Of a DNA stretch of 36,096 nt, positions 5,126 to 13,763 are shown in pieces. The first letter of the stretch is position 1. Each line of letters opens with the position of its first letter. A program made the position numbers and the translations under genes. The stretch spans positions 1-36,096 of the forward strand of contig JBBQEX010000005.1 in the NCBI GenBank assembly GCA_038321315.1, in the 5' to 3' direction. A model generated the notes under the pieces. It did no database searches, was not told the origin of the DNA, and saw only the letters and a program-made list of their open reading frames with translations. Source of the DNA: Haliangiales bacterium (GTDB lineage: Bacteria; Myxococcota_A; Polyangia; Haliangiales; Haliangiaceae).

Positions 5126-5893
5126 GTGGTCCGGGTCCTCCTCGTCTTCGTGCTGCTCGGTGCGCATGTCGCCGCGGCGCAGATCGTCAATGCGCAGAGC
5201 GCGCTCGCAGCGCCGTCCAAGGGCAACGGCGTCGTCGGCTCGGTCGAGGCCAAGATCGACTGGCGCGAGGGCAACAACTCGCTGATCGACACCAGCGCGA
5301 CCGCCACGCTGGTCGTCCGCCACGATCGCATCCTCGTCCTGGGCGTCGCGCGCGGCGGCTACGGCGAGAGCCGCGGCCAGGTGCTCACGAAGAAGACGTT
5401 CGAGCACCTGCGGACCCGCATCAAGCTCGACCCGCGCTGGCGCTGGGAGGGCTACGCGCAGCACGAGTACGACCAGTTCCGCCGGATCGCGCTGCGCGCC
5501 CTGGTCGGGACCGGCCCGGCCCTCGTGGTGTTCGACCGGCCCGCCGGCGGCATGATCTCGGGGCTTTCGCTGATGTTCGACTACGAGCGGCTCGATCAGC
5601 GGCGCGGCACGATCGACGCCGGCAAGCGCTACGGCGTGTTTCGCGCGTCGGCGTACCTCGCGGGGCACGAGCAACTCGCGCCGAGCGCGCTGCTGATCCA
5701 GACCATCTACGTCCAGCCGCGGTTCGACGACGCGAGCGCGTATCGCGTGCTCGGCGAGCTGACGCTGCTCAACAAGCTGTCGTCGCGGATCGCGCTGACC
5801 AACGGCTTCTCGGTGTCGTACGACGCGACGCCGCCGGTCGGCGTCAAGCGCTACGACGCCGAGCTCAAGGTCGGTGCGGTCGTGTCGTTTTGA
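5126..5893 (+). CDS. DUF481-family (YdiY-like) outer-membrane beta-barrel protein
   Basis: GTG start 7 nt after the secretin stop. Signal peptide MVRVLLVFVLLGAHVAAAQ. Alternating hydrophobic beta pattern. C-terminal ...GAVVSF ends in Phe, the usual outer-membrane-protein signal. Confidence 0.55.
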   Translation: MVRVLLVFVLLGAHVAAAQIVNAQSALAAPSKGNGVVGSVEAKIDWREGNNSLIDTSATATLVVRHDRILVLGVARGGYGESRGQVLTKKTFEHLRTRIKLDPRWRWEGYAQHEYDQFRRIALRALVGTGPALVVFDRPAGGMISGLSLMFDYERLDQRRGTIDAGKRYGVFRASAYLAGHEQLAPSALLIQTIYVQPRFDDASAYRVLGELTLLNKLSSRIALTNGFSVSYDATPPVGVKRYDAELKVGAVVSF

Positions 5894-8666
5894 CCGGGGT
5901 CGCCGGCTTGATCGGGGTCGGAGCTGCGGGCTTGACGAGCTTCATGCCACCGAGCCAGCCGCGCAGCTCGGGCTCGACGAGCTTGCGCCCGGCGATGCAC
6001 TGATCCATCTCCTCGATCGCCTGGCGCACCGCCCGGTCGCCGGCGGGTAGCTTGCCGAACGTCGCGAGGACGTACGCGGCCGTCTCGTCGCGGCGCGTGG
6101 CATCGCAGCTGCCGGTGAACAGCGCCGCGAGCTCGGCGCCGATCGAGTCGGCGGTGCCGTCCGCCGGGATCCGCTTCATGATCGCGGCGGTGTGATCGCG
6201 GAAGAACTGCTGCGCGACCCGGCGGTTGGCCTCGGTCGTCGCGTCGTCGAGCATGCCGAGGGTCTCGCGGATGTCGAGCTTGTCGTCGAGCACGAGGCCG
6301 AGCGCGGCGACCTGGCGCTTGGGGTCGCGCACGCGGGCGAGCGCGATGAACATCTCGCGCCGGCGCGTGCGATCGGCCTCGGTGTAGATGTCCTTGATCA
6401 GCCGCTCGAACAGCTCGGGCTTTGCATCGGTCGCGAGCTCGAGGACGATCGGCCGCACGCCCTGCGGCAGCGCCCGCCAGTCCGCGGCGAGCCGGGTCGC
6501 CTCCTCGAGGATCTTCGGCGCGCGACCGTAGCGGCCGACCGTGCGGATCAGGTCGCCGCGGCTGGCCTCGGCGTCGAGTTCGTCGGTCGGGCGCGACACG
6601 AGGCCGACCTGATCGGCGCCGGGCCCGAACGTCTGTCGAAGCCACTGCTCGTACTTCGGGCGCAGGTCGTCGGGGACGGCGTCGCTGACGTGCTGCGGCA
6701 GCTCGACCGCCTCGGCGATCGTGAAGCGATCGTTGCCGGCGAGCAGCTTCGGCACGAACGACATCGCGAGCGCGAGCGGCAGCTTCGCGGTCCCGGCGTA
6801 GGTGCGCGCCTCGTAGGCGATCGACAGCCGCTCGTTCCACGCGAGCTTGTCCCACGCGACGTCGCGCAGCGCGGTGAGCTGCGCCGCGGTGTACGCCGAG
6901 TGGTAGTAGCCTCGACCGTCGGCGTTCGTGACCATCCACGCCGGACACTTGTCTCCCGCCAGCGCGATCGTCGCGCTCGGCTCGGCCATCAGCGTGCAGT
7001 CCTGGCGCGACTTGCCGGCGCTCTCGTAGTGCACGCAGACCGGCAGGATCCAGGGCCTGGTGTTCTCCGGAGGCGGCGCCCCCGGCGGCAAGTAGCGGCG
7101 CTGCTCGAGCACGACGCGCAGGCTGCTCGGGTGGGTGCAGTCGAGTCTGGCGGTGATCTCGGGCTCGCCGGCCTGATCGAGGAACGTCGCGAACGCCGGC
7201 GCGACGTCCTTGCCCGCGACCTTGCTGATCGCGGCGGCGAAGTCCGCGGACGTCGCGTTGCCGTGCTGCTTCGACTTCAAGTAGGCGCGCACGCCGTCGC
7301 GAAACCGATCGCGGCCGACGTAGCTCTCGAACATGTCGAGGATGCTCGAGCCCTTGTCGTACGTGATGCCGTCGAACGCGCCGAGGATGTCGTCGACCGC
7401 GTCGATCGGCTGGCGGATCTTGCGCGCGCTGACCAGCGCGTCGTCGTCGAGCGCCGAGTGATGGCGGCCGACCTCGGCGAGCTCGTCGTGCCAGCGCGGG
7501 TCGAACTTCGCGCTGATCTGGTGCTCGAGCCAGTTCGCGAAACCCTCGTTGAGCCACAGGTCATCCCACCACGCCATCGTCACGAGATCACCGAACCACT
7601 GATGCGCGATCTCGTGCGCGGCGACGTAGATCCAGCGGTGCTCGCGCTCCTTGGAGGCCTTGGCGTCGAGCAGCATGTCGCGCTCGCTGAACGTGATGAG
7701 CCCGGCGTTCTCCATCGCCGAGAACCCGACGGTCACCGGGATCGCGAGGAAGTCGAGCTTGGCGTACGGGTAGGGCATCCCGAAGAAGTCCTCCTCGAGC
7801 TCGAGGATCTTCGGCGCGGTCTTCGCCGCCCACGCGGCGTCGGCCGCGCGACCCTTGAGCGCGAGGATGTGGATCGGCGTGCCGCCCGTGGTCGCGCCGG
7901 CATCGACGGTCTCGAACGGGCCGACCCCGAACGCGAGGAGGTAGGACGGCAGCGGCTTGGTCGGGGCGAACTCGACGCGCTTGCGCTTGCCGTCGTCGCC
8001 GAACGGCTCGGACTTCACGATCGGCGTGTTGGCGACCGCGACGAGATCCTTGGGCACCTCGAGCGCGAGTCGCCACGGCACCTTGACGTCGGGCTCGTCG
8101 AGGCAAGGGAACACGCGGCGGGCGTAGATCGCCTCGAACTGCGAGTAGACGTAGGTCTCCTTGCCGACGGTCTGCTTGAACGCGCCAGCGGTGTTGAGCA
8201 GCTCGTAGTCGGCGGCGAAGTCGATGGTCAGCGTCCACGTACCGGCGTCGAGCGGCGAGGCGGCGCGCAGCTCGAGGAGATCCTCGCCGTGCGCGGTCGC
8301 GACGAGCTGGACGTCGTGCGCGTGGCGGCTGTCGAACGGATCGCCCGACGACGCGACCGCGCGCGCGATCGCGAGCTTGCGCCCGTGGAGCCAGATCGTC
8401 GACGAGCGCTCGGCGACCGCGCCGGCGATCTCGATGCTCCCGGTGAACCCGGCCTTCGCCGGATCGATCGCGAGCGACACGCGGTACTCGCTCGGCACGA
8501 AGTTGCGCGGCAACCGCAGCTTGGGCTCCGGCGGCACGAGCCCGAGCGGCGACACCGGTGCGACCGGCGCGTCGGTCGTGCTGACGACGATCTTGCCGCC
8601 GGTCACCGCGGGCTTCGCGGGCGTGCAAGCCGCGAGCGCAACTGCCGACGCGATCGCGAGCTTCAT
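5865..8666 (-). CDS. pepN: M1-family aminopeptidase N, lipoprotein form
   Basis: HEIAHQWFGDLVT (HExxH), WLNEGFA (the second zinc ligand Glu) and GAMEN-like SAMENAG. The real start MKLAIASAVALAACTP (lipobox) is at 8664-8666. The upstream 137 codons of ORF 5865..9077 are Arg-rich junk. Confidence 0.85.
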   Translation of the reverse strand: MKLAIASAVALAACTPAKPAVTGGKIVVSTTDAPVAPVSPLGLVPPEPKLRLPRNFVPSEYRVSLAIDPAKAGFTGSIEIAGAVAERSSTIWLHGRKLAIARAVASSGDPFDSRHAHDVQLVATAHGEDLLELRAASPLDAGTWTLTIDFAADYELLNTAGAFKQTVGKETYVYSQFEAIYARRVFPCLDEPDVKVPWRLALEVPKDLVAVANTPIVKSEPFGDDGKRKRVEFAPTKPLPSYLLAFGVGPFETVDAGATTGGTPIHILALKGRAADAAWAAKTAPKILELEEDFFGMPYPYAKLDFLAIPVTVGFSAMENAGLITFSERDMLLDAKASKEREHRWIYVAAHEIAHQWFGDLVTMAWWDDLWLNEGFANWLEHQISAKFDPRWHDELAEVGRHHSALDDDALVSARKIRQPIDAVDDILGAFDGITYDKGSSILDMFESYVGRDRFRDGVRAYLKSKQHGNATSADFAAAISKVAGKDVAPAFATFLDQAGEPEITARLDCTHPSSLRVVLEQRRYLPPGAPPPENTRPWILPVCVHYESAGKSRQDCTLMAEPSATIALAGDKCPAWMVTNADGRGYYHSAYTAAQLTALRDVAWDKLAWNERLSIAYEARTYAGTAKLPLALAMSFVPKLLAGNDRFTIAEAVELPQHVSDAVPDDLRPKYEQWLRQTFGPGADQVGLVSRPTDELDAEASRGDLIRTVGRYGRAPKILEEATRLAADWRALPQGVRPIVLELATDAKPELFERLIKDIYTEADRTRRREMFIALARVRDPKRQVAALGLVLDDKLDIRETLGMLDDATTEANRRVAQQFFRDHTAAIMKRIPADGTADSIGAELAALFTGSCDATRRDETAAYVLATFGKLPAGDRAVRQAIEEMDQCIAGRKLVEPELRGWLGGMKLVKPAAPTPIKPATPVKTTRPHRP

Positions 8667-9490
8667 GCCGGGACCGTAGCACCGCAGCACTGCTTCCACT
8701 TCTTCATCGAGCCACACACGCACAGGTCGTTGCGCCCCGGCTTCATCGGCTTGTTGCGCGCCATCTCGCGCGCCGGCGGGAAGGCGATCGGGCGCGTCGC
8801 GCGACCGAGCTCCTCGGCGGCGGTGAACCGCGCCGCGATCTCGTCGAGCTTCGCCGGCGTGAACCAGTCGAGGGCCTCGGCCTCGAGCTTGCGGGCGAGG
8901 GCGTAGTAGCGCCGCGGGTCGTGCGCGTGATCGAAGTGCGGGACGCGGCGATAGCCCGGAGGCACGTCGACGATCGCGGTCCCGCCGGCGAACCCGTAGG
9001 TGCCGACATCGCGCGCCGGCAACAGCGGCCACGCGATCCCGAACAGCCGGTACGCGACCGCCGCGAGCCCGGACCACGCGCGCGCCTCGTTCTGGTTGAA
9101 CGGATGCAGGTACGCCGCCTCGTCGGCGGGCGCGACCGACTCCGGTACGCCGTACGGCAACCCGACCGGCGTGCCGTAGTTGGGCAGGGCCGGATCGCCG
9201 CTCACCGCGTGGATCAGCTCGTGAACGCAGAACCCGAGCAGCCGGCTATGGATGCACGCGCCGTCGCGCACCGCGACCCAGCGCACCGCGCCGCCGAGTT
9301 GCTGCTGGACGCGCCACAAGGTCGGCGCCGCGAGATCCCAGATCACGGTCTGGCCCCAGCCGCGCATCGCGTCGTCGAACCGGTACAGCGCCGCGATGCC
9401 GGCGGTGCGCTCCTCTACAGACAGCACCTCGTGGCACCGGCACAGGCACGGAAACGGCGTCTGGACTGCATCGACGACCGTGGCCGGCAT
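8663..9490 (-). CDS. Putative zinc-dependent protein with an HExxH motif and a C-terminal SEC-C metal-binding motif
   Basis: FCVHELIHAV (HExxH) and C-terminal CVCGSMKKWKQCCG (SEC-C motif). Its stop overlaps the pepN ATG as ATGA. Start chosen at MPATVV (9490) because the region just upstream is AT-richer and intergenic-like. Confidence 0.55.
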   Translation of the reverse strand: MPATVVDAVQTPFPCLCRCHEVLSVEERTAGIAALYRFDDAMRGWGQTVIWDLAAPTLWRVQQQLGGAVRWVAVRDGACIHSRLLGFCVHELIHAVSGDPALPNYGTPVGLPYGVPESVAPADEAAYLHPFNQNEARAWSGLAAVAYRLFGIAWPLLPARDVGTYGFAGGTAIVDVPPGYRRVPHFDHAHDPRRYYALARKLEAEALDWFTPAKLDEIAARFTAAEELGRATRPIAFPPAREMARNKPMKPGRNDLCVCGSMKKWKQCCGATVPA

Positions 9491-9515
9491 TGCGCGCAGT
9501 GTATTACCGATAGCC

Positions 9516-10349
9516 ATGACCGCGTACGCGTTCCGCATCGTCAACGTGTTCACCGTCGGAGCCGACAAGTTCTCCGGCAATCCACTGTGCGTCTTCGAGG
9601 ACGCGCGCGACCTCACCGACGCGCAGATGCAGCAGCTCGCGCGGCAGATGAACCTGTCGGAGACCACGTTCGTGCTGCCGAGCGCGACCGCCGACGCGCG
9701 CGTCCGCATCTTCACGCCCGGCTTCGAGATGCCATTCGCCGGCCACCCGACGCTCGGCACCGCGAGCGTCGTCGCGCAGGGCCGCGCCGCGATCGCGTTC
9801 GAGATGCGCGCCGGTCGCGTCGAGGTCACCGCCGCCGACGGCACGTACACCCTGCGTGCCGCGCGCGCGCCGGTCACCCGCGCGGTCGAGGCCACGCGCG
9901 ACGAGCTCGCGAGCATGGTCGGCCTGCCCGCCGGCTCGGTGTCCGGCGAGCCACGCTGGGTCGACACCGGCGTCGAGCAGCTCGTGATCCCGGTCGCGTC
10001 GTCGGAGCTCGTGCGCGCCGCCAGGCCGGTGCTCGCGCTGATCGAGCGCTGGGGCTTCTCCGCGGCCCGCCAGGAGGCGATGGCCTACCTGGTCGCGCCC
10101 GACGGCGTCGTGCGCTTCTTCTTCACGTCGAACGGCGCGCTCCTCGAGGATCCGGCGACCGGCTCGGCGTGCGCGAACCTCGGCGGCTGGCACCTCGCGA
10201 TGGGAACCCCACTGCCGTTCACCGCCACGCTATCGCAGGGTGACGCGGTCGGCCGGCCCTCGCGCCTCGACCTCCGGGTCGACACCGATCGCAACATCTT
10301 CGTCAGCGGCGCGGTGATCGAGCTCGGCCGCGGGACCGTCGACCTCTAG
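9516..10349 (+). CDS. PhzF-family phenazine-biosynthesis-like isomerase
   Basis: MTAYAFRIVNVFT...GNPLCVF...LSETTFVLP...FTPGFEMPFAGHPTLG are conserved PhzF/YddE motifs. ATG at 9516 is in the frame of ORF 9252..10349. Confidence 0.75.
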   Translation: MTAYAFRIVNVFTVGADKFSGNPLCVFEDARDLTDAQMQQLARQMNLSETTFVLPSATADARVRIFTPGFEMPFAGHPTLGTASVVAQGRAAIAFEMRAGRVEVTAADGTYTLRAARAPVTRAVEATRDELASMVGLPAGSVSGEPRWVDTGVEQLVIPVASSELVRAARPVLALIERWGFSAARQEAMAYLVAPDGVVRFFFTSNGALLEDPATGSACANLGGWHLAMGTPLPFTATLSQGDAVGRPSRLDLRVDTDRNIFVSGAVIELGRGTVDL

Positions 10350-11085
10350 AAGTAGTACGACAGGCCGATCGTGAACTGGCCGCCCTCGAGCTTGGTCGAC
10401 TCGGCCATGGTCGGCGTCGTCGGCTGGGTCGGGGGCGGGTTGCCGGTGCTCGTCGTGTTCGGCGGGGGCGACGGCATCGGCGGGGTCTCCTTCGTGGTGC
10501 CGCCGTGGTCGTGGTCCTTGCCGATCGTGATCCAGCGGAGCTCGGCCTGGAGCGCGAACCGCTCGAAGCGACGCTCGACGCCGATGCCGAGCTGGCCGTG
10601 CGGCTTGGTCGCCGCGTCGCGCTCTTCCTTGGTCGCTTCGGCGCTCGCGATCGCGGTCTTGCCGAGGCCACCCATCACCCACCAGTTCCAGTCGGCGCCC
10701 GGGTCGAACCGGTAGCGGAGGCCGAGCGTGCCGGACGACAGCTGGCGATCGCCGGCGTTGCCGTCGGGGAGCTGCTCCTTGCCGCCGCCGAGCGCGAGCT
10801 CGAGCTCGAGGTGGCGCGTCGCGCGATAGCGCAGCGCGAGCTCGCCGATCGCGAAGTCGGTCTTCGCGTCCGGGCTCTGCTTGGGTGCGAGGCTGACCTG
10901 GCCGAGGGCGAAGCCGAGCGACCAGCGCTGACCCTTCGCGCACGGCGCGGGGGTGGGGCGGTCGGTTCGACCATCGACGGCCCCATCGCCCCGGGATCGC
11001 TCTCGACCTCACCGGGAGCCTCGGCAAGCGCGACCGAACCGGAGAGCATGATGGACGACGCGAAGACGAGCGCAGTGGGACGCAT
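10346..11085 (-). pseudogene. Outer-membrane beta-barrel protein (about 246 aa) disrupted by a +/-1 frameshift in a homopolymer run; either a pseudogene or a sequencing error
   Basis: The signal peptide MRPTALVFASSIMLSGSVALAEA is in the frame of ORF 10675..11085, which then turns to Arg/Ser junk. The barrel body (…KGQRWSLGFALGQVSLAPK…GELALRYRATRHLELELALGGG…FTIGLSYYF) is in the frame of ORF 10346..10678 and is open upstream to 11009. The frames switch inside ggcgcgggggtggggcgg (about 10944-10963). Confidence 0.55.
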
Positions 11086-11245
11086 GGGTCAGGTATCGTT
11101 CCACAACTCGTGCCACGCCAACAGCGCGAAATGGAGCAAGCCCGGCCTCCGGCTGGGCGTAGATGATCGGGTGGCAGACGTTGCCAGCTGGATTCCCCGA
11201 CACCGGGCGTTGGTAACTCCTACAGTCCTTCCGTACGATAGCGTG

Positions 11246-11998
11246 ATGACGCGGCGGACCTTCGCGGTCGGGGACATTCACGGGGATCTCGGGGCAGTCG
11301 AGAAGCTGTTCTCGCGGATCCCGGAGCTCACTCCGGATGACACGGTCGTCTTCCTCGGCGACTTCATCGACCGCGGGCCCGACTCGGCCAAGGTCGTCCA
11401 GTGGGTGCGCGACCTCCAGGCCAACAGCCCTGCCAAGGTGGTCTGTCTGCGCGGCAATCACGAGGATGCCTGGCTCGAGGTCATCGACCGCGGCTGGGCG
11501 GAGTTCGTGTTCCCGCGCGGCAACGGTTGCTTCGAGTCCCTGCGCTCGTTCGCCGGTGGCAAGCCGCCGACCGACGACGAGCTGCCGACCGAGGACGAGC
11601 TCGAAGCGATGATCACCGGCAGCTTCTTGCCGGTCGAGGTCGTGTCGTGGTTCCGCGAGCTCGCGCACTTCTACGAGGACGAGCACGCGATCTACGTGCA
11701 CGCCGGGATCAAGCGCGTCGACGGCGAGTTCCCGCATCCGTCGAAGGTCGATCCGCCGCGCGCGCTCCTGTGGCTGCGCGATCGCGACTTCTTCGAGCAC
11801 TACCGCGGCAAGCTCGTCGTGTTCGGCCACACGACGACGCGGACGTTGCCGAACGAGCTGTCGACCTACACGCCCGAGGATCCGACGGACCTGTGGGCCG
11901 GCCCCGCGTGCGTCGGGCTCGACACCGCCTGCGGCAAGGGCGGATTTCTCACGGCGTTCGAGCTCCCCGATCGAAAAGTCTACGAATCGCGTGACTGA
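11246..11998 (+). CDS. PPP-family serine/threonine protein phosphatase / metallophosphoesterase (ApaH/PrpE-like)
   Basis: GDIHGDL, GDFIDRGPDS and LRGNHE are the canonical GDxHG / GDxxDRG / GNHE motifs. ATG at 11246 is in the frame of ORF 10505..11998. Confidence 0.8.
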   Translation: MTRRTFAVGDIHGDLGAVEKLFSRIPELTPDDTVVFLGDFIDRGPDSAKVVQWVRDLQANSPAKVVCLRGNHEDAWLEVIDRGWAEFVFPRGNGCFESLRSFAGGKPPTDDELPTEDELEAMITGSFLPVEVVSWFRELAHFYEDEHAIYVHAGIKRVDGEFPHPSKVDPPRALLWLRDRDFFEHYRGKLVVFGHTTTRTLPNELSTYTPEDPTDLWAGPACVGLDTACGKGGFLTAFELPDRKVYESRD

Positions 11999-12545
11999 AG
12001 CTGCGGCGCTGCGCGCGAACCTTCGCGCCGGCGGACGCGGTCTTCGCGCGATCCGCGTGCTTGCCTAGCATCTGGCGCTCCTTGTCGGTGCCGACGAAGA
12101 TCTCGCGCGTCTTCGCGAGGATGTCGAACCACGACCACGCGACGCCGAAGTTCATGTCCTGATCGCCCATGTGGTGGTCGTAGTGCCACGACAGGTGATC
12201 GCGCGCCCACGCCGGATCGAGGTGGGCGTGCCGGTGATCGCGGCGATAGCGGTACAGGCAGTACCAGACCGTCGCGGTGTAGAACGGGGCGATCGGGAAC
12301 AGCGGCACGTGGACGAGCGCGATCGCGGCGAGCCCGATCGCCTCGCGCGCCTGCGTCGGCGTCGACCACACCGGACCCTCGTACGCCGGGTCGTAGCCCC
12401 CGTTGCGGCGCACCGCCTGATGATGATCGTGATAGTGGAACGAGAACCGGCTCGCACGATCGCGACCGAGGCCGTGGAGCACGTGCTTGTGGATCGCCCA
12501 CTCGCCGTAGCCGAACACCGCGAAGGCGACCGGGATCCCGAGCAT
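11949..12545 (-). CDS. Fatty-acid hydroxylase / sterol desaturase superfamily integral membrane protein
   Basis: His boxes HKHVLH, HYHDHH and HYDHH, with hydrophobic spans. Start at MLGIPV (Met83 of ORF 11949..12791). The 3' end overlaps the convergent phosphatase gene by about 50 nt. Confidence 0.65.
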   Translation of the reverse strand: MLGIPVAFAVFGYGEWAIHKHVLHGLGRDRASRFSFHYHDHHQAVRRNGGYDPAYEGPVWSTPTQAREAIGLAAIALVHVPLFPIAPFYTATVWYCLYRYRRDHRHAHLDPAWARDHLSWHYDHHMGDQDMNFGVAWSWFDILAKTREIFVGTDKERQMLGKHADRAKTASAGAKVRAQRRSFSHAIRRLFDRGARTP

Positions 12546-12553
12546 GCGAGAGC

Positions 12554-12880
12554 TTACTTCGGCGCCGGCAGATACGCGCGCGGAATCGCGCCGCCCGCGA
12601 GGAACTGGCGGCGCCGGCGGCGACCGAGCGCGCGCTGGGTCGCGAGGATCGAGCCGAACCCGGCGAACGCGCCGCCGGTCGCGACGATCCAGCTGAACCC
12701 GAGCATCGGCAACACGACGCCGATCGAGATCATCGCGAGCATGCCGCCGAGCACGCTGACGATGATGTCGCTCGCGTTGCGACGGTTCCACGCATCGAAC
12801 GCGAGCTCGCAGTCACCGCACCAGCCGGTGCGGGCGAGCGTCGTGTCGGCCTGGCAGCGCTTGCAGGTCATCGACCCCAC
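12554..12880 (-). CDS. Small membrane protein with an N-terminal zinc-ribbon (CxxC…CxxC) and two TM helices
   Basis: MTCKRCQ…WCGDCE, then two hydrophobic helices (VSVLGGMLAMISIGVVLPMLGF, IVATGGAFAGFGSILA) and a basic tail. Sits 8 nt upstream of the hydroxylase gene. Confidence 0.5.
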   Translation of the reverse strand: MGSMTCKRCQADTTLARTGWCGDCELAFDAWNRRNASDIIVSVLGGMLAMISIGVVLPMLGFSWIVATGGAFAGFGSILATQRALGRRRRRQFLAGGAIPRAYLPAPK

Positions 12881-12926: not shown

Positions 12927-13763
12927 TCATCGCGTGACGGTATAGCCCGCGCGCGCGAGCAGGGTAGGGAGGCCGCCGTCGCCGAGCAGGTGGCCGAGGC
13001 CGACCGCGACGAACGTCGTGCCGGTCGCGTCGACGTAGGCCTCGATCTTCGGCAGCCACACCGTGTTGCGATCGGAGATCAGGTGCGAGCTGTCGACCAG
13101 CAGCTTGATCTTCAGCGCCTCGGCGTCGCTCGCGAGGTACGCGGCCTGCGTCTGATCCTGGCTGCAGCGGATCGAGCGCCGCGCGTGGATCGCGTCCGCG
13201 AGGTCGCTCGGCGCGACCGCGGCGTCGAGCGCGGCGAGCTGCACCTCCCAGGTCTCCAGTGCATCGATCGGCAGGTGGTGCTCGCTGGCGCGTGCGGTGA
13301 GCGCGTCGTCCATCGACGGCTTCGGCGCCGGCGCGACCTTCGCCATCAGCTTGATCATGGCGTACCACGGCTTGGCGTGACGGAGATCCTCGGTGTGGAT
13401 CGTGCCGTGCAACGCGTCGTCGAGCGCCCACCAGTCGTCGTTCGCGAGCAGGCCATCGAGCGACTTGCCGCCGTACGGGATGCGCGCGAGCTCGATGAAC
13501 TTGTCCTTGTCGGGCTCCTTGTCGCCGAGCTCCGACGCGTAGTGCTGTGCGCTCGCGAGCGCGTCCCACACCGGCTTGGCGACGTCGGGCGTCGACGCGG
13601 TGTGGATCGTGCCGAACAGGATCACCGCGCCGGGCGCGCCGGCCTTGGTGACGTGCCACAGGAACGGCGCGCCGTGCGGAGCGCTGTACTTCGGCAGCTC
13701 GCAGCGCGGTGCCGGCGTGCCGCACGCCGCGAGGGCGAGCACGAGCAGCGCGCGGGTCACCAC
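12927..13763 (-). CDS. TraB/GumN (TIKI-like) family lipoprotein
   Basis: Signal peptide with lipobox VVTRALLVLALAACG. Motifs LFGTIHTAS (GTxH) and VAVGLGHLLG (GxGHL) are characteristic of the TraB/GumN/TIKI family. The GTG start overlaps the stop of the upstream gene as GTGA. Confidence 0.65.
   Translation of the reverse strand: MVTRALLVLALAACGTPAPRCELPKYSAPHGAPFLWHVTKAGAPGAVILFGTIHTASTPDVAKPVWDALASAQHYASELGDKEPDKDKFIELARIPYGGKSLDGLLANDDWWALDDALHGTIHTEDLRHAKPWYAMIKLMAKVAPAPKPSMDDALTARASEHHLPIDALETWEVQLAALDAAVAPSDLADAIHARRSIRCSQDQTQAAYLASDAEALKIKLLVDSSHLISDRNTVWLPKIEAYVDATGTTFVAVGLGHLLGDGGLPTLLARAGYTVTR

Follow-up and report, generated by a model that had tools for sequence, protein, structure and literature searches.

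A metal-binding domain (MBD) stands at the extreme C-terminus of SecA, YecA/AscA and YchJ, in each case after a helical linker. Its sequence signature is CXCX8CH (CXCX8CC in some bacteria), Ser889 being almost invariant and Tyr893 conserved. SecB and ribosomes are both bound by the domain, which is also able to bind iron, and methionine aminopeptidases (MetAPs) of many bacteria have such a domain as well (Cranford-Smith et al., bioRxiv 10.1101/613315). SecA-type MBDs are emerging as portable ribosome- or SecB-binding tags (SecA, AscA/YecA, MetAP), and the SEC-C motif is a promiscuous C-terminal appendage that also occurs in defence-system and phage models. Here we describe a protein with the same C-terminal arrangement in which the SEC-C motif follows a domain bearing an HExxH motif. 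It is encoded in a 36,096-nucleotide stretch of DNA from a Haliangiales bacterium (assembly GCA_038321315.1, contig JBBQEX010000005.1, positions 1 to 36,096), referred to below as the window.

The MetAPs with an SEC-C motif (e.g. NCBIfam NF008970) embody the same concept, a metallopeptidase domain combined with a SecA-like MBD that is presumed to target the ribosome. They differ in having the M24 pita-bread fold, a dinuclear site and an N-terminal MBD, whereas the window protein has an HExxH domain of another fold and a C-terminal MBD, and the two share no sequence similarity beyond the SEC-C motif. The N-terminal domain of the window protein is also none of those found in SecA, UPF0149 (YecA) and UPF0225 (YchJ), and an HExxH site is present in none of these. 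Among zincin-like HExxH domains, the closest described systems are the FtsH protease domain (M41), the ArdC metalloprotease domain, CapP and Zincin_2 (3cmn).

The HExxH motif and the SEC-C module

The gene lies at 8663-9490 on the minus strand and translates into 275 codons and a stop, with no internal stops. An earlier sequence-only reading had placed it at these coordinates correctly and had left the strand unstated. The longest open reading frame extends to a GTG at 9967, upstream of the ATG at 9490. We assign the start to ATG 9490 because the homologues all start at a conserved M/V-PATVVDAV, and the window protein begins MPATVVDAV. It lacks a signal peptide as well as any hydrophobic segment (maximum 19-residue Kyte-Doolittle value of 1.3) and is therefore cytoplasmic. 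Its features are as follows.

8663..9490, minus strand: coding sequence of the HExxH and SEC-C protein, 275 residues (open frame, translation, common homologue start, 521 and 691 database relatives).
9434..9448, minus strand: N-terminal CxCxC (C15, C17, C19), which with C79 (9254-9256) makes up the conserved cysteine set.
9209..9223, minus strand: HELIH (H90, E91, H94), residues 90-94, the probable catalytic metal site (invariant in alignments A1, A3, A4 and A5; on predicted helix 84-97).
9071..9130, minus strand: predicted helix 121-140 with the invariant stripe E124/L128/N132/E135, a candidate "glutamate helix" for a third metal ligand (invariant columns and helix assignment; the ligand role is inferred).
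8930..8938, minus strand: invariant H185-x-D187, alternative or additional candidate metal ligands (invariant columns).
8681..8734, minus strand: SecA-type MBD, SEC-C motif, residues 253-270 (PF02810 at 29.8 bits; SecA/YchJ MBD peptide match; local Foldseek match to 2i9w).
8684-8722, minus strand: CxCx8CC, CVCGSMKKWKQCC, residues 257-269 (sequence).

The co-occurrence of HELIH (residues 90-94) and a C-terminal SEC-C motif (257-269) in one protein, which the sequence-only reading had pointed out, is thus borne out. Conservation was assessed in an alignment of 70 sequences with less than 80% pairwise identity that are 47-80% identical to the window protein. Only 47 of the 275 positions (17% of columns) are invariant, and H90, E91 and H94 are among them in 70/70 members. 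We also translated 16 further diverged copies from genomes and read them by eye: every one keeps both HExxH and SEC-C. A protein of this composition is expected to contain ∼0.011 HExxH motifs by chance. Because of this low expectation and the invariance of all three residues, HExxH is, on the alignment evidence, a conserved functional motif; non-conservation among homologues had been set beforehand as the outcome that would count against it, and the opposite was found.

Several other residues are conserved in the same alignment. C15, C19 and C79 are invariant, with C17 conserved in at least 90% of sequences, and the same is true of E124, N132 and E135, with L128 at or above 90%. The loop N104-G106-G110-P112-Y113-V115-P116, the triplet G163-T164-Y165, the pair H185 and D187, and the SEC-C residues C257, C259, G260, S261 and C268 are all invariant. 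D99, the last residue of HExxHxxxGD, is replaced by Val in one locus (L084) and is therefore not an essential ligand. Four sequences of alignment A2 (P0153, P0155, P0158 and P0182) that seemingly lack HExxH or SEC-C proved to be frameshifted high-GC metagenome assemblies and not true variants; P0155 is a read-through chimera of a ferredoxin and the SEC-C protein. Such frameshifted cluster representatives would mislead automated tests of motif conservation.

The SEC-C module (PF02810, residues 253-270) scores 29.8 bits against a gathering cut-off of 20.4, and PF02810 is matched by all 70 family members. We took the criteria for an MBD, CxCx8C[H/C] with a conserved Ser and aromatic residue, from bioRxiv 10.1101/613315. 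The ligand spacing here is C257-x-C259-x8-C268-C269, and the invariant S261 and the aromatic W265 occupy the positions of SecA Ser889 and Tyr893. The last 25 residues read GRND-CxC-GS-x-KK-aromatic-K-x-CC, and residues 250-270 (KPGRNDLCVCGSMKKWKQCCG) are identical to the E. coli SecA MBD peptide at 15 of 21 positions. Searched with the family profile, SecA tails and the C-terminal MBD of YchJ come up at E ∼1e-7. By every sequence criterion, then, the module belongs to the SEC-C/MBD family. NCBIfam matches (YecA, YchJ, SWIM/SEC-C and MetAP models) are confined to the last ∼25 residues, and the N-terminal chaperone domain of UPF0149 was not found: NF007704 (PRK10396) aligns only residues 245-269, with profile positions 195-219 of 221.

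Family and taxonomic range

A word-indexed search of 5.8 billion proteins returned 521 relatives, the best 120 of which are all 75-87% identical to the window protein. Where a source gives these proteins a name, it is "hypothetical protein", "SEC-C motif" or "SEC-C domain-containing protein"; the organisms given are Kofleriaceae and metagenome-assembled genomes of Deltaproteobacteria or Proteobacteria. A profile of diverged members retrieved 691 proteins, all of ∼270-305 residues and all with SEC-C. An exhaustive phmmer search with the N-terminal 245 residues against 1.84 billion representatives of 50%-identity clusters yielded 64 sequences; these are family members, fragments or frameshift chimeras, and the search gave no outgroup and no version without SEC-C. 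A scan of GTDB, with one genome per species, found relatives in 94 stretches, of which 80 loci were kept. All 80 are from Myxococcota except one short contig, and they span Kofleriaceae, Haliangiales, Polyangiaceae, Labilithrix and Byssovorax, with identity to the window protein down to 48%. The exception (L008, JBLMXA010000274.1) is a 4.8-kb contig binned as Acidobacteriota; its copy is 79% identical and has an M1 gene next to it. It is probably mis-binned, since all other loci are Myxococcota.

The first 245 residues, searched as a single sequence, in a scan of the 70 members and as a profile, have no match in Pfam, NCBIfam, PHROG, PADLOC or PDB; the only matches are to SEC-C, and this includes the profile search of PDB. 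No Pfam or NCBIfam peptidase model matched the window protein or any of the 70 relatives at E ≤1. Pfam DUF6459 appeared in 13 members on the Ala/Arg-rich residues 171-229 at no more than 19 bits against a cut-off of 27, and we judged these matches compositional. Among the papers listed by the one literature search aimed at it, none describes an HExxH and SEC-C protein, and the combination is also missing from the family libraries, in agreement with the sequence-only reading, which did not recognise the fusion as a described family. On these searches the domain occurs in one architecture and one bacterial class only (Polyangia, Myxococcota), and it lies outside any curated family. The gene is real and highly conserved and encodes a member of an uncharacterised, taxonomically narrow protein family: the family of its probable catalytic domain is new, and the targeting module joined to it is known.

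Predicted fold and candidate chemistry

AlphaFold run with 20 close homologues (75-87% identity) gave a poor model with a predicted local distance difference test (pLDDT) score of 62.6, and its Foldseek search was discarded. Adding relatives that are 47-61% identical to the window protein cured this: AlphaFold2 with the 70-sequence alignment gave a pLDDT of 93.6 and a predicted template modelling (pTM) score of 0.91. The model begins with a helix (25-44), followed by short strands (48-50 and 71-73) that flank a helix (55-68). Helix 84-97 bears the HExxH motif and leads into a loop rich in Gly and Pro that contains a strand (114-116). In the next helix (121-140), E124, L128, N132 and E135 are spaced in the sequence at i, i+4, i+8 and i+11 and so form one face. 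A beta-hairpin region (167-182) and two long helices (192-209 and 212-231) precede the SEC-C knuckle. The order of sheet, HExxH helix and acidic helix in the model has the look of a gluzincin-like site.

Weak structural neighbours of the model included ArdC (4.5), EpmC/YfcM (4.2), 3cmn (3.6) and CapP (3.6), and proteases outnumber oxygenases among the top structural matches. A Foldseek search of the model against PDB found nothing significant except a local match of SEC-C to 2i9w; ArdC and FtsH reappear among the non-significant matches. The sequence-only reading had proposed a model as the check on whether HELIH sits in a zincin fold. The motif does sit on a confidently predicted helix, and the significant PDB match extends to SEC-C only. 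A direct hhalign comparison of the E. coli FtsH protease domain with the family profile was rejected (probability 1.4%, off register). On weak to moderate support from the model, the N-terminal domain may be a zincin-like core, too far diverged to be recognised with confidence, and we use "zincin-like" for a resemblance that consists of the motif on a helix, the acidic helix and weak structural neighbours. This confidently modelled domain would represent a fold without a close solved relative.

The reading that we prefer, and hold tentatively, is a cytosolic zincin-like metalloenzyme tethered by its SecA-like MBD to ribosomes or SecB. Its first module (residues 1-245), the Polyangia-restricted domain, would hold a mononuclear metal site on the invariant HExxH helix. 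The candidates for the third ligand, E124, E135, H185, D187 and C79, are all invariant in the alignment; a carboxylate from the E124/E135 helix is the probable choice, and failing that H185/D187 or C79 might serve. The most likely chemistry would be zincin-type hydrolysis of a peptide bond with E91 as the general base. The second module (residues 246-275), a canonical SecA-type MBD reached via the two long helices, may anchor the first module to ribosomes or SecB, and the enzyme would then act on nascent or not-yet-exported polypeptides. We propose this tethering because the MBDs of SecA and YecA/AscA bind both partners and many bacterial MetAPs also have an MBD, and the mechanism as a whole argues by this analogy. 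It is possible, if somewhat unlikely, that the family forms a class of HExxH enzymes, tethered to ribosomes or SecB, that has so far gone unrecognised; its members would be either proteases or EpmC-like hydroxylases, confined to Polyangia and with an extra conserved Cys4-type site.

On this last reading, the family would be a third kind of nascent-chain or pre-secretory processing enzyme beside peptide deformylase and methionine aminopeptidase. An HExxH catalytic domain with an MBD tag would widen the set of enzymes that act at or soon after protein synthesis. For research on the Sec pathway it would also be a new entry point in the myxobacteria, a group with very large exported secretomes. 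With ∼77% identity across a family-level clade, the N-terminal domain is a tractable target for a new Pfam or MEROPS family and for the question of hydrolysis versus oxygenase chemistry. Should the protein be merely a lineage-restricted housekeeping hydrolase, the wider impact would be modest.

The main rival on chemistry is an EpmC-like hydroxylase, a non-haem-iron oxygenase with a 2-His-1-carboxylate Fe(II) site to which the MBD brings a ribosome-associated substrate, with electrons possibly supplied by a ferredoxin. HExxH "peptidases" of clusters for peptides that are made on ribosomes and modified after translation (RiPPs) turned out to be alpha-ketoglutarate hydroxylases with a zincin-reminiscent fold (PMC12636437). 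In YfcM, also called EpmC, the Lys34 hydroxylase of EF-P, the metal is held by His59 and His63 of the HExxH helix and Glu98 of the next helix (PMC4231759), and a non-significant hhalign alignment puts H90, H94 and E135 in register with these ligands. The probability of that alignment is just 1%, and there is no significant sequence similarity to EpmC. The window protein is ∼90 residues longer, with additional conserved Cys and HxD elements and an MBD that EpmC lacks. Neither the window protein nor the 70 relatives match the Pfam EpmC model, and the alpha-ketoglutarate-dependent HExxH beta-hydroxylases (IPR026337/TIGR04267) were not found in an NCBIfam scan at E ≤1, which gave only SEC-C-mediated models. 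The predominance of proteases over oxygenases among the top structural matches also weighs against this rival.

A ferredoxin would fit an electron-requiring enzyme, and one is indeed encoded next to the gene, in one clade only. In seven loci at 52-60% identity (L070, L071, L074, L077, L078, L085 and L088), the next gene upstream, on the same strand, encodes a NapG/MauM-like poly-[4Fe-4S] ferredoxin of ∼193 residues; our own gene calls put the gap at −58 to +14 nt, and source calls, where they exist, at −1 to +14 nt. The ferredoxin has a vestigial twin-arginine motif and no hydrophobic signal region. On balance we regard oxygenase chemistry as unlikely.

Gene order and the M1 aminopeptidase neighbour

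The window protein has an M1 aminopeptidase gene directly downstream, and the sequence-only reading had suggested that it is a regulator or chaperone of that peptidase. The features on either side of the SEC-C gene are as follows.

8663..8666, minus strand: ATGA stop/start overlap with the M1 gene (sequence; the identical contig L091 is called with the same overlap).
5865..8666, minus strand: M1-family aminopeptidase lipoprotein, 933 residues, a co-oriented downstream neighbour (PF17900, PF01433, PF11838; lipobox LAAC; HEIAH, SAMEN, NEGFA).
9516..10349, plus strand: divergent PhzF-family gene (PF02567, E 1.4e-45), 25 nt from the SEC-C gene start codon and within the same conserved gene block.

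Both local observations behind that suggestion are correct. The stop TGA (8663-8665) overlaps the ATG of the M1 gene (8664-8666) on the same strand. The M1 product contains the Peptidase_M1_N, Peptidase_M1 and ERAP1_C domains and has a lipoprotein-type N-terminus, MKLAIASAVALAAC. Its SAMEN motif (7707-7721) stands in place of the canonical GAMEN exopeptidase motif, and the 3' end of the gene overlaps a convergent open reading frame, 5126-5893 on the plus strand, by 29 nt. The SEC-C and M1 genes are very probably co-transcribed in the Kofleriaceae lineage, which includes the window, and very probably translationally coupled in the window. On the other side, the divergent starts at ATG 9490 (minus) and ATG 9516 (plus) are 25 nt apart (9491-9515). 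No sigma-70-like promoter was found in 5400-10400, a span in which the promoter and terminator scan was uninformative. Given the 25-nt gap and this negative scan, either the mRNAs are leaderless or the SEC-C and PhzF genes must have their promoters within adjoining coding sequence.

A tblastn search for M1 genes covered 84 non-redundant loci, which we split by identity of the SEC-C homologue to the window protein (at least 69% versus at most 68%).

M1 directly downstream, same strand: 40 loci at ≥69% (including L022); 0 loci at ≤68%.
M1 downstream, same strand, with inserted genes between: 11 loci at ≥69%; 0 loci at ≤68%.
M1 directly downstream, convergent: 3 loci at ≥69% (L016, L029, L033); 0 loci at ≤68%.
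M1 upstream, divergent: 1 locus at ≥69% (L046); 0 loci at ≤68%.
M1 absent for at least 3 kb to either side: 5 loci at ≥69%; 13 loci at ≤68%.
No M1 found, flanks too short or incomplete: 5 loci at ≥69%; 6 loci at ≤68%.

The gene pair therefore recurs across genomes, within the Kofleriaceae clade only. There some two thirds of cases (40/∼60 informative loci) have M1 as the adjacent downstream gene in the same orientation, and an independent gene caller based on GC content at third codon positions (GC3) has it as the +1 gene in 33 of 49 loci. Where the homologue is at ≤68% identity, all 13 fully informative loci lack an M1 gene within 7 kb. With the same caller, 27 of 48 loci of the clade have PhzF among the three genes upstream, and 18 have an OmpA-family gene among the three downstream. 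Because M1, PhzF and the OmpA-family gene all recur around the SEC-C gene, the whole block PhzF-(small gene)-SEC-C-M1-OmpA is syntenic. Clusters c4, c10 and c11 and the OmpA-family c8, which are conserved at other Kofleriaceae loci, are absent from the window; c4, c10 and c11 resemble small outer-membrane proteins when the sequences are read by eye. In one Kofleriaceae genome (L056, 7937-13192), two tandem M1 genes lie directly downstream of the SEC-C gene.

A dedicated partner of M1 could be a cytoplasmic holdase or targeting factor that hands the 933-residue precursor to SecB or SecA via the MBD, or a protease or regulator that sets the level of M1. The ATGA coupling in the window and the rank of M1 as the most persistent neighbour are in line with such a role, for which AscA/YecA, an MBD-bearing chaperone for Sec substrates, is a precedent. 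We nevertheless consider the role distinctly unlikely, and the earlier suggestion largely unsupported, because the pairing is confined to one clade and decays there like ordinary synteny, with about a third of informative loci convergent, displaced or lacking M1. At loci where M1 is convergent (3), upstream and divergent (1), displaced (11) or absent (5), the SEC-C protein is still 71-79% identical. PhzF on the other side is kept almost as often, as expected of block synteny, and M1 is missing near all the informative homologues at ≤68%. Conservation also differs: in the same genomes, median identity to the window is 77% for the SEC-C protein, 67% for PhzF and 54% for M1. A cytoplasmic protein could meet the exported M1 lipoprotein only before export, and a holdase needs no invariant HExxH. 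The M1 pairing is thus a lineage-specific inherited gene order and not a family rule or defining partnership, and the function of the family cannot depend on M1.

Other neighbours bear on a third rival, in which the protein is a non-catalytic metal or redox sensor or a metallochaperone, with CxCxC and C79, HExxH, HxD and SEC-C all binding metals, as has been proposed for the YchJ MBD cysteines. At least three candidate metal sites are conserved, and YchJ is reported as a factor that senses reactive oxygen species (PMC13377102). At three loci of the Labilithrix clade (L081, L083 and L087; 48-50% identity), the gene 12-17 nt upstream on the same strand encodes a heavy-metal P-type ATPase, with HMA and E1-E2 domains. 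In each of three clades, then, the tightly linked neighbour is metal-related (Zn peptidase, Fe-S ferredoxin and HMA P-type ATPase). This link is thematic only, with no common partner. The protein contains no DNA-binding or known sensor domain, and both the invariant Glu of HExxH and the resemblance to zincin-like structures speak for catalysis instead. We give a sensor or metallochaperone a slim chance. The last rival, in which HExxH is a chance motif and SEC-C the sole functional element, could appeal to the failure of any peptidase family to match by sequence and is effectively refuted by the conservation data, which leave it a negligible probability.

Downstream of the SEC-C gene in the diverged clades, differing GntR-type regulators are usually convergent, and in two of the three Labilithrix-clade loci (L083 and L087) the convergent gene is of the MocR type, a GntR-aminotransferase. 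Two related loci (L053 and L076) have a 307-residue gene upstream on the same strand after a 16-nt gap; its product has no NCBIfam match and by eye resembles cupin/JmjC-type oxygenases. Elsewhere in the window, and unlinked to the SEC-C gene, are a calcineurin-like phosphoesterase (11231-11998, plus strand), a weak fatty-acid-hydroxylase-like membrane protein (11949-12791, minus strand) and a TraB/PrgY/GumN-family lipoprotein-like gene (12927-13763, minus strand).

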